A stretch of 13,079 nucleotides of DNA, from NCBI GenBank assembly GCA_048939765.1, contig JBHLPF010000004.1, positions 76,884 through 89,962 of the forward strand. Direction: 5' to 3'. Below, one piece after another: positions 8,957-10,717 of the stretch. The position numbers were made by a program, and so were the translations under genes. This stretch comes from Promethearchaeota archaeon (GTDB lineage Archaea > Asgardarchaeota > Thorarchaeia > Thorarchaeales > Thorarchaeaceae). Position 1 is the stretch's first letter. The number at the start of each line of letters is the position of its first letter. Below the pieces are notes generated by a model. It was not told the DNA's origin. It did no database searches and worked only from the letters and a program-made list of their open reading frames with translations.

Positions 8957-9925
8957 CTAGATCGCCTCCATAAAGACATCATCGAGAGCTTCTTCTGGCG
9001 CGGGATGCTCTGATTTGATTGCAAAATCTGCAGCCTTGTCGACAGCCTTTTGCAGCTTCTTTCGTATGCTCTCTGCCTGCTTCTCTGTGAGTGCTTTCTT
9101 TTCAAGCGCAATTTTCCTAATTGTTTCTACAGCGTCTCGACCCATCCAATGGTCTACCTCATCTTGAGGACGATACTTCGCTTGATCGAATCGTGAGTGG
9201 CCCCTCATTCTGTATGTTTTGCATTCAATCAGACTGGGCCCTCCTCCCTCTCGAGCTCTCTTAACTGCTTGAACAGCAGCTTCATACACCTCCAGTGCAT
9301 TGTTACCATCCACTACAACCGATGGTGTGCAGTAGGCATCACCTCGGTCGGCGATATTCTGGCTTGGACAGGTCAGCTTTATCGGAGTACCCATCGCGTA
9401 GAGGTTGTTCTCAACGACCCACACTAATGGCAGCTGCCAGATTGCGGCCATATTGAGGGATTCTCCAAAGGTTCCGTTGTTTGATGCTCCATCCCCAAAG
9501 AAGCACGCGACGACTTCATCCGTCTTTCTCATCTGAGCTGATAGCGCAGCTCCGACTGCTATTGGAAGTCCTGATGCAACGACGCCAGTTGCTCCTAGCA
9601 CTCCGACATCGAACTGAGTGATATGCATTGAGCCTCCCTTTCCCTTGCATGAGCCAGTCTTTTTCCCCAACAGTTCAGCCAGTGCAGCATTCATGTCGGC
9701 TCCTTTCGCTACAACATGTCCATGACCTCGGTGGGTGCTTTGAATCCAGTCTGTTTCCTTGAGAGCTGCTGTGACACCAGCCGCGATAGCTTCCTGTCCC
9801 AGATACAAGTGCAGTGTGCCTGGAACTAGGTTCTGTCCGAAAAGTTCCCAGACTTTTTCTTCGAAGAGACGCACTTTGAGCGTACGCGTATAGAGATCAA
9901 CAAGAGTTTCTTTTCTGACTGCCAT
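8957..9925 (-). CDS. pdhA: 2-oxoacid/acetoin dehydrogenase E1 alpha subunit (PdhA/AcoA-like, TPP-binding)
   Basis: HLYLGQEA, STHRGHGH, GKGGSMH, TPP motif GDGA-x-NN and TYRMRGHS. Start set at ATG 9925 (9937 is an alternative). Stop abuts the E1beta ATG. Confidence 0.95.
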   Translation of the reverse strand: MAVRKETLVDLYTRTLKVRLFEEKVWELFGQNLVPGTLHLYLGQEAIAAGVTAALKETDWIQSTHRGHGHVVAKGADMNAALAELLGKKTGSCKGKGGSMHITQFDVGVLGATGVVASGLPIAVGAALSAQMRKTDEVVACFFGDGASNNGTFGESLNMAAIWQLPLVWVVENNLYAMGTPIKLTCPSQNIADRGDAYCTPSVVVDGNNALEVYEAAVQAVKRAREGGGPSLIECKTYRMRGHSRFDQAKYRPQDEVDHWMGRDAVETIRKIALEKKALTEKQAESIRKKLQKAVDKAADFAIKSEHPAPEEALDDVFMEAI

Positions 9926-9961
9926 TTTCTGTCCCATCCATTTGCCGCGTGAGGGATTACG

Positions 9962-9989
9962 GCGGAATCCGCGAACTATAGTTGATAAA
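9962..9989 (-). promoter_or_regulatory. Putative E1alpha promoter: TATA-like TTTATC (9989-9984) followed by two palindromes
   Basis: AACTATAGTT (9974-9983) and GCGGA-A-TCCGC (9962-9972) lie directly downstream of the TATA-like element. Confidence 0.4.
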
Positions 9990-10004
9990 GGCTTCGAACT
10001 AGCA

Positions 10005-10218
10005 GTGTCCGCTTCTCCCAATGTGCGGGCGGATACACAGCAATCATCATATCATCGTGCCATCTCTGTTATTTTGGCTAGGGACGTGGATATCTCCTAT
10101 TGCGTTTGGAAACTTACCATGTGATTCCTATCTACGTCTCTACTCAATTCGTGACCGCTGCTTAAACGGGGGTTGCGGCGGTCACAGGCCAAAAACGTGC
10201 ATTCCAGAATCGAAATGC
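10005..10218 (+). ncRNA. Candidate structured RNA upstream of fwdD (family not recognised)
   Basis: Stems 10005-10014/10027-10036 (10 bp), 10079-10092/10129-10142 (14 bp) and 10151-10161/10175-10185 (11 bp). Every non-Watson-Crick position in them is G-U on the + strand. Confidence 0.5.
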
Positions 10219-10315
10219 CCCTAACCAGCATTTTCTCCGTCTAGTGTAGTTGACCATGACACTCATATCTTGGTTTTGAAAAGAAACTCCTCATCCCAGA
10301 CTGGTGTTGTCAGCC

Positions 10316-10717
10316 ATGAATGATGTAGGTGTCGAAGTTCTCCTAACTTCTGGTCGGACACTCAAGCAGGGTCAGACTATGGAATTGGGAAAACTCAATC
10401 AGGAGTACTTTGAAGCTGTCGCTATTTGTGAAGTCGATAAGTCCACGCTTGTAACATTAGGACTCGAGGAGGGAGATCCAGTCAAGGTGAAGACTGCGAC
10501 TGGAAGCGTTGTTGTTGCCTGCAAAGTAGACAGAAGAGCTGAACCAGGTGTAGCGTTCATGCCCTGCGGTCCATGGGCTAATGCAGTCTTGGATTCGGAT
10601 ACTAGTGAAAGCGGCATGCCACAATACAAGGAAATGGATGCCAAGCTCTTCGCTGCGAAGGGTGAGAATATTCCGAGTGCAGAGGATTTGCTGAAGGCAT
10701 TAGTGGAGGTGTCGTAA
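10316..10717 (+). CDS. fwdD: Formylmethanofuran dehydrogenase subunit D
   Basis: LTSGRTLKQG, VKVKTATGSVVV, FMPCGPWAN and GMPQYK motifs. Directly precedes fwdB. ATG 10316 (GTG 10304 is an alternative). Confidence 0.92.
   Translation: MNDVGVEVLLTSGRTLKQGQTMELGKLNQEYFEAVAICEVDKSTLVTLGLEEGDPVKVKTATGSVVVACKVDRRAEPGVAFMPCGPWANAVLDSDTSESGMPQYKEMDAKLFAAKGENIPSAEDLLKALVEVS

Follow-up and report, generated by a model that had tools for sequence, protein, structure and literature searches.

What is encoded in the 378 nt (positions 9938-10315) that separate the divergent E1alpha and fwdD genes of a Thorarchaeota genome? Thorarchaeota are uncultured relatives of the eukaryotic ancestor, and to our knowledge no regulatory RNA of this group has been characterised. 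In the window, by which we mean the whole 13,079-nt stretch of DNA analysed, the gene for the TPP-dependent E1alpha (PF00676) lies on the - strand and is followed by E1beta and E2, and fwdD lies on the + strand and is followed by fwdB and fwdA. E1alpha has two in-frame ATG codons, at 9937 and 9925 (positions 9923-9937 of the window); the shorter form, from 9925, may be the real start, because alignments with homologues begin at residue 4-5. A sequence-only reading of the spacer had proposed a three-stem RNA element, possibly a molybdenum or tungsten cofactor (Moco/Wco) riboswitch of fwdDBA, with a free-standing RNA as its fallback. We find that the region holds a conserved, folded + strand RNA that matches no known riboswitch, and we lean towards interpreting it as a free-standing, lineage-restricted + strand small RNA gene of ~65-160 nt, found in two Thorarchaeota genera. 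The features of the spacer are collected in Table 1.

Table 1. Features of the E1alpha-fwdD spacer, in window coordinates.
Feature	Position	Strand	Evidence or content
Putative E1alpha promoter block, GTTCGAAG-CCTTTATCA (BRE + TATA)	9983-9999	-	Invariant in 15 congeners
Palindrome ATGTG-N10-CACAG, candidate operator	10021-10041		TGTG and CACAG invariant in 14 sequences
TATA-like box CATCATATCA, putatively of the small RNA	10045-10054	+	Conserved across the genus
Core hairpin of the RNA	10079-10142	+	Covariation, G-U/A-C asymmetry, z, conservation, single-copy model matches
Second hairpin, 11-bp stem, loop UUAAACGGGGGUU	10151-10185	+	100% paired in 8 sequences
T-run, candidate RNA 3' end in the subgroup	10231-10234	+	T-rich tract at the same alignment position in 8 of 8 group-1 sequences
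Promoter-like block of the downstream gene	10253-10281	+	GACAC/GAAAC (BRE-like), TCATATCT (10263-10270), TTTTGAAA (10274-10281)
GGTG Shine-Dalgarno-like motif and fwdD start codon (ATG 10316)	10303-10318	+	PF01568

The three stems of the sequence-only reading (10005-10014 with 10027-10036, 10079-10092 with 10129-10142, and 10151-10161 with 10175-10185) all lie where it had placed them, and the MFE fold of 10005-10260 gives the three; the short motifs that it quoted (CUCCC at 10015-10019, GGGGG at 10168-10172, GCCCCU at 10217-10222 and the TATA-like TTTTGAAA) are also at their correct positions in the sequence. The fold signal of this 256-nt region as a whole is modest (z = -2.27 on the + strand, -1.23 on the - strand). 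The middle hairpin, folded alone, reaches -22 kcal/mol on the + strand (z = -4.65, with 0 of 200 shuffles as good), against -12.5 kcal/mol on the - strand (z = -1.53). Its closing stem, P1, is formed by 10079-10092 with 10129-10142, and a short inner helix (~10098-10101 with 10118-10121) is capped by a 16-nt loop, within which GCGUUUGGA (10102-10110) is invariant.

Evolutionary evidence for this hairpin is strong in both pairing and sequence. In alignment A2, 96% of the cells of the stem are paired and six pairs have changed on both sides, a result matched by 0 of 500 shuffles; alignment A3 draws its 26 distinct sequences from two genera and has 94.6% of the cells of P1 paired. Within the 12-bp closing stem, C-G has become U-A and U-A has become C-G between the two subgroups, other pairs having gone from G-U to G-C, and the 4-bp inner helix covaries too. 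The non-Watson-Crick cells of P1 in A3 comprise 40 G-U and only 2 A-C, and the pairing is therefore one of RNA, on the + strand, as the sequence-only reading had argued from the G-U pairs of the stems. That reading had also proposed a search for homologues and covariation; the alignments supplied both, the covariation lying in the middle hairpin. The spacer can be aligned in 14 of the 16 genomes of the genus and its conservation is patchy: the hairpin is 81-92% identical to that of relatives whose four-fold degenerate E1alpha sites are 45-49% identical, and the linkers have diverged as much as neutral sites.

The other two stems fared differently, so that the proposed three-stem element stands in part: the middle and third hairpins hold in relatives, and the first stem is not conserved. 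In the third hairpin (10151-10185) three positions vary (A-U/G-U, C-G/U-G and U-G/C-G/U-A) without loss of pairing, and its G-U pairs can form on the + strand only; the pairing is not significant against shuffles, and the hairpin is specific to the window's subgroup, occurring neither in the other half of the genus nor in the sister genus. Pairing in the first stem (10005-10036) is 63%, which is the shuffle level, and the stem overlaps the promoter and palindrome region. The suggested kissing interaction between the CUCCC and GGGGG loops, with GCCCCU as an alternative partner, is not borne out, CUCCC and GCCCCU not being conserved among the eight closest homologues. An alternative partner for the invariant GGGGG loop could be CUCC in the internal loop of the middle hairpin, which is likewise invariant; the two sides of this candidate contact are both present only in the window's subgroup.

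Could the long inverted repeats act at the DNA level alone, forming operators or a cruciform, and specify no functional RNA? The ten inner P1 pairs hold 34 G-U cells and not one A-C cell, the fold is much weaker on the - strand, and the arms lie 36-60 nt apart, unlike operator half-sites; a purely DNA-level element is thus highly improbable, even though the spacer does contain one palindrome of DNA type (10021-10041). The mismatches of this palindrome show no strand bias (9 of G-T type, 5 of A-C type), unlike those of the RNA stem, which makes a DNA site more likely than an RNA hairpin, and we read it as a candidate transcription-factor site. The palindrome and the CATCATAT that follows it (10021-10052 together) are conserved in the genus, its counterpart in the sister genus is GTGTAY-N4-RTACAC, and it sits just upstream of the RNA's TATA box. 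Between that box and the stem, at 10055-10078 and homologous positions, there is also a semi-conserved GTTGTRYAC/GATGTRYAC; it resembles a third palindrome half-site and might serve a repressor that covers the start point.

A protein-coding origin of the conservation was considered for the 67-aa ORF at 10021-10224 and rejected: only 3-16 codons of it are left in five congeners and the substitutions are non-conservative, and it is therefore not coding. No Pfam family was found for the ORFs at 10021-10221 and 9942-10121, no conserved ORF was found at the RNA locus, and a tRNA/tmRNA search found none.

The interior that P1 encloses comes in several forms. In most copies of the sister genus, P1 (13-14 bp) closes a three-way junction made up of a small hairpin with GUUGCG, a UGGAUGA joining strand, a 5-6 bp hairpin (P3) and an A-rich return strand; P3 covaries and has a GAAU or GAAA loop. 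One clade of that genus has GGAUUGG repeats in the interior instead. The RNA of the window is the minimal form, with UUGCG-UU-UGGAAA within its 16-nt loop, and UUGCG and UGGA are the motifs that its interior has in common with that of the sister genus. One divergent copy (L168; metagenome contig Ga0224507_10047550, ~571-700) has lost ~35 nt between palindrome and stem, TATA box included; both of its P1 arms are shortened in a compensating way, and its UUGCG loop reads UUAUA. Either this copy is degenerating, or it indicates that a different start site can serve for making the RNA.

The distribution of the RNA was traced with covariance models. The first, R1, built from the hairpin, found one copy in the window's own genome and weak matches in a second genus (the sister genus), all of which adjoin E1alpha. 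Rebuilt as R2 after these matches, the model gave strong single matches in 13 of 16 genomes of the own genus and 22 of 28 of the second, both in the Thorarchaeaceae, and further copies came from metagenome contigs, among them L156 and L163 from White Oak River SMTZ samples. R2 had no credible match in the other 14 genera of the family, where four weak ones (E 2e-4 to 5e-3) are at chance level and the one inspected falls outside the E1alpha locus in coding-looking sequence, nor in 125 genomes elsewhere in the phylum, where two weak matches were dismissed on checking. Among these weak matches outside the two genera, those in G036, G039 and G055 fall in coding-looking sequence away from E1alpha and were taken as chance. 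On the E1alpha tree the distribution needs at least three gains or losses, so the RNA-bearing genomes do not form a simple clade on this gene; the repeated loss in sister lineages shows that the RNA is dispensable.

The neighbourhood is fixed on one side and variable on the other. All own-genus copies and 19 of the 19 tabulated second-genus copies are divergent neighbours of E1alpha, and 14 of those 19 have fwdD downstream, the other five, and G067, preceding other genes; because the separation from fwdD amounts to about one rearrangement in one clade, it counts once, and the 19 of 19 overstates the independent evidence for E1alpha linkage. In that clade fwdD is replaced by a methyltransferase-like gene in four genomes and by another gene in two. 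No fwdD homologue is detectable in G087 (97% complete) or G065 (92% complete), both of which keep the RNA, and in three other genomes fwdD-like genes lie elsewhere and the sole credible model match is still beside E1alpha. In many relatives without the RNA, E1alpha and fwdD are still neighbours, across a spacer of 98-260 nt. The functional tie to fwdDBA that the sequence-only reading had suggested is thus not supported, the RNA being kept where fwdD is replaced or undetectable and missing from many relatives that keep it.

Three further loci merit description. On the complete chromosome CP070658 (G004; L011/L111), E1alpha matches only over residues 4-131 and the contig runs on, so that this gene may be broken or rearranged, with RNA and fwdD intact. 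In G010 (L014) the spacer has an N-run near the fwdD start, with an inverted duplication of the start region beside it; misassembly is the likeliest cause. The RNA-free relative G043 (L048) has a 991-nt E1alpha-fwdD spacer with an inserted small ORF; its product starts MDQRNIPVDTKTYELLKALKRPSESF and resembles a ribbon-helix-helix or antitoxin-type protein, which suggests a mobile insertion at the same spot.

Where would transcription of this RNA begin? The genome's own tRNA genes (G000) provide a reference: CGAAR (BRE), 1-4 nt and TTTAWATC-like boxes stand ~25-38 nt before the mature 5' end. A tRNA-Sec gene is among those present in this genome, so the organism probably makes selenoproteins. 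The 17-nt block 9983-9999, which scores highest with the PWM across the intergenic region and has exact or one-mismatch copies in 77 of 86 family genomes, reads TTCGAAG-CCTTTATCA on the - strand; it fits the CGAAR + TTTAWATC pattern, and we take it to be the putative E1alpha promoter. On the + strand, TCATATCA (10047-10054) ends 24 nt before P1 and is comparable to the GATTATATCAAG of this genome's tRNA-Leu promoter. A canonical TAAATAAT or TAATATT precedes P1 by 20-23 nt in the sister genus, where the spacer sequence differs, so that a TATA-like box stands 20-25 nt before P1 in every subtype. As judged from sequence, the RNA would thus have its own BRE/TATA ~25 nt upstream of its 5' end, in the manner of a free-standing archaeal sRNA.

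This geometry would also suit a promoter-associated divergent transcript acting in cis, for which the act of transcription, or a factor bound to the palindrome, would tune the E1alpha promoter, the stable hairpin mainly protecting or terminating a short RNA. The promoters lie back-to-back (60 bp apart here, ~130 bp in the sister genus) with the palindrome between their TATA boxes, and the RNA is the divergent neighbour of E1alpha in every copy examined. We nevertheless regard such a transcript as quite unlikely: conservation of the GCGUUUGGA and GUUGCGCUAUGRAUGA motifs exceeds what a hairpin serving stability alone would require, and the same E1alpha promoter block is in use in relatives that lack the RNA.

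At the other end, a T4 tract (T3-T5 across the eight close homologues; Table 1) marks a possible terminator in the window's subgroup, and most sister-genus copies have T3-T7 runs 5-15 nt after P1. An RNA extending past the extra hairpin to the T4 would be ~155 nt long, and this segment has a z of -3.22. Beyond it lies the conserved block that the sequence-only reading, on the strength of its TATA-like element, had suggested might be fwdD's own promoter. The 27 nt at 10253-10279 are 89-100% identical across the genus; the block has a homologous counterpart in the sister genus and can still be recognised in two closely related copies where fwdD has been replaced (L129, L142), and it is therefore best read as the promoter and operator of the downstream gene, in agreement with that suggestion. 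Reading it as an RNA hairpin was rejected in favour of a promoter or operator, since the sister genus does not preserve the 7-bp pairing seen in this genus.

These observations bear directly on whether the RNA instead belongs to the downstream gene (fwdD, or the methyltransferase-like gene in one clade) as its structured 5' leader, perhaps a riboswitch-like aptamer. Transcription would then start at ~10077, and ligand- or protein-dependent folding would set read-through of the T-run into the ORF. Two things lend this arrangement some plausibility: the weak T-runs of this genus, and an aptamer-like architecture, a P1-closed junction (three-way in the sister genus) with near-invariant junction nucleotides. 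In addition, the RNA precedes the next gene in the same orientation in every case, and its interior differs in the clade whose downstream gene has changed. We consider it unlikely all the same: a conserved promoter-like block stands between RNA and ORF, no conserved alternative pairing or Shine-Dalgarno-sequestering element was seen across the subtypes by inspection, no Rfam riboswitch model matches, Moco included, each genome has one locus and no other gene carries the RNA, and the RNA persists where fwdD is undetectable and has been lost in many lineages that still have fwdD, as described above. Less likely still is an orphan metabolite- or protein-sensing aptamer of Asgard archaea, a P1-closed junction that would act as leader or in trans to switch between the E1alpha and fwdDBA pathways; if this were true, a sensing RNA would sit at the node of 2-oxoacid oxidation (the E1alpha operon) and the C1/Wood-Ljungdahl branch (fwdDBA).

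We return, then, to the free-standing small RNA gene, the fallback of the sequence-only reading, which fits because the structure is formed on the + strand and fwdD has a separate promoter-like block. According to this model, ~10077-10142, and probably on to ~10235 in the window's subgroup, would encode a structured small RNA driven by its own weak BRE/TATA (10045-10054), behind the candidate palindromic operator and back-to-back with the divergent promoter of the E1alpha operon. Its 5' end would fall at the foot of the 12-14 bp closing stem, which would present the UUGCG...UGGA loop or junction, and fwdD would be transcribed separately, from the 10253-10281 block. The T-runs of this genus are short (T3-T5) and lie 90 nt past the core hairpin, so read-through into fwdD is possible. 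Counting against the model is the divergent copy L168, in which the stem survives, with compensation, although the TATA region is gone; there, transcription could come from elsewhere. As to function, we favour, speculatively, an RNA acting in trans through its conserved unpaired GGA-rich and UUGCG motifs, by protein binding or short base pairing; a factor binding the palindrome might, equally speculatively, switch the RNA together with, or opposite to, the dehydrogenase operon. The complement of the invariant loop has no other site in the genome at one mismatch or fewer in a meaningful context, and duplex folding of the RNA interior with the E1alpha leader revealed no significant complementarity (z from -1.0 to +0.6).

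Taken together, covariation, strand-specific wobble pairs, promoter geometry and a single copy per genome make this a comparatively well-supported RNA family, absent from Rfam, with a fixed place between two central-metabolism operons. It is a concrete target for metatranscriptome mapping and biochemical probing, and a tempting annotation as a Moco/tungsten riboswitch has been removed as unsupported.

It is instructive to compare this RNA with known families. Rfam yielded no match for the window at gathering score, none for 9850-10400 (551 nt) at E <= 10, for the Moco and cobalamin models as for the rest, and none for seven homologous loci at E <= 5, with Moco, cobalamin, TPP, hammerhead and guide RNA models included; the only hit, sR60, scores 15.5 bits against a gathering score of 50 and lies on the other strand in another place. 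Like the Moco/Wco RNA motif (RF01055), this is a structured RNA upstream of a molybdo/tungstopterin enzyme gene, with echoes in UAGGG and UUUGGAAA. Unlike that motif, which has a multi-stem fold, its conserved core is one 64-nt hairpin, and its linkage to Mo/W genes is inconsistent, given the copies that lack fwdD downstream. Covarying helices around a conserved core, as in riboswitch aptamers generally, are present (P1, and P3 in the sister genus), and the sister-genus form, a ~75-nt P1-closed junction with two hairpins and conserved joining strands, recalls the purine riboswitch; it differs from the latter in that it has no Rfam match and no expression platform that we could find, each genome has a single locus, and there is no coherent set of genes under its control.

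Three further classes were tried and rejected. Archaeal C/D and H/ACA guide sRNAs are of similar size, with paired termini and GA-containing motifs, but this RNA lacks C/D boxes at guide spacing, and no ACA box follows its stem. An archaeal SECIS element does not suit fwdD, fwdB and fwdA frames that are open without UGA, nor a hairpin upstream of a separate promoter block. A type III hammerhead requires the core strands CUGANGA and GAA, with one nucleotide separating stems III and I; the sister-genus junction has UGGAUGA, AAAACA and a 7-10 nt A-rich joiner, and no Rfam hammerhead model matches it.

A further comparison is with OxyS/oxyR, GcvB/gcvA and SgrS/sgrR, bacterial small RNA genes that diverge from a co-regulated neighbour. 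The Thorarchaeota locus differs from these in that the neighbour is a metabolic operon (E1alpha-E1beta-E2) rather than a regulator gene, and the host is archaeal, with BRE/TATA promoters. The arrangement is otherwise alike: a short structured RNA with its own putative promoter back-to-back with that of its neighbour, a candidate operator between the two, and a putative U-run at the 3' end.
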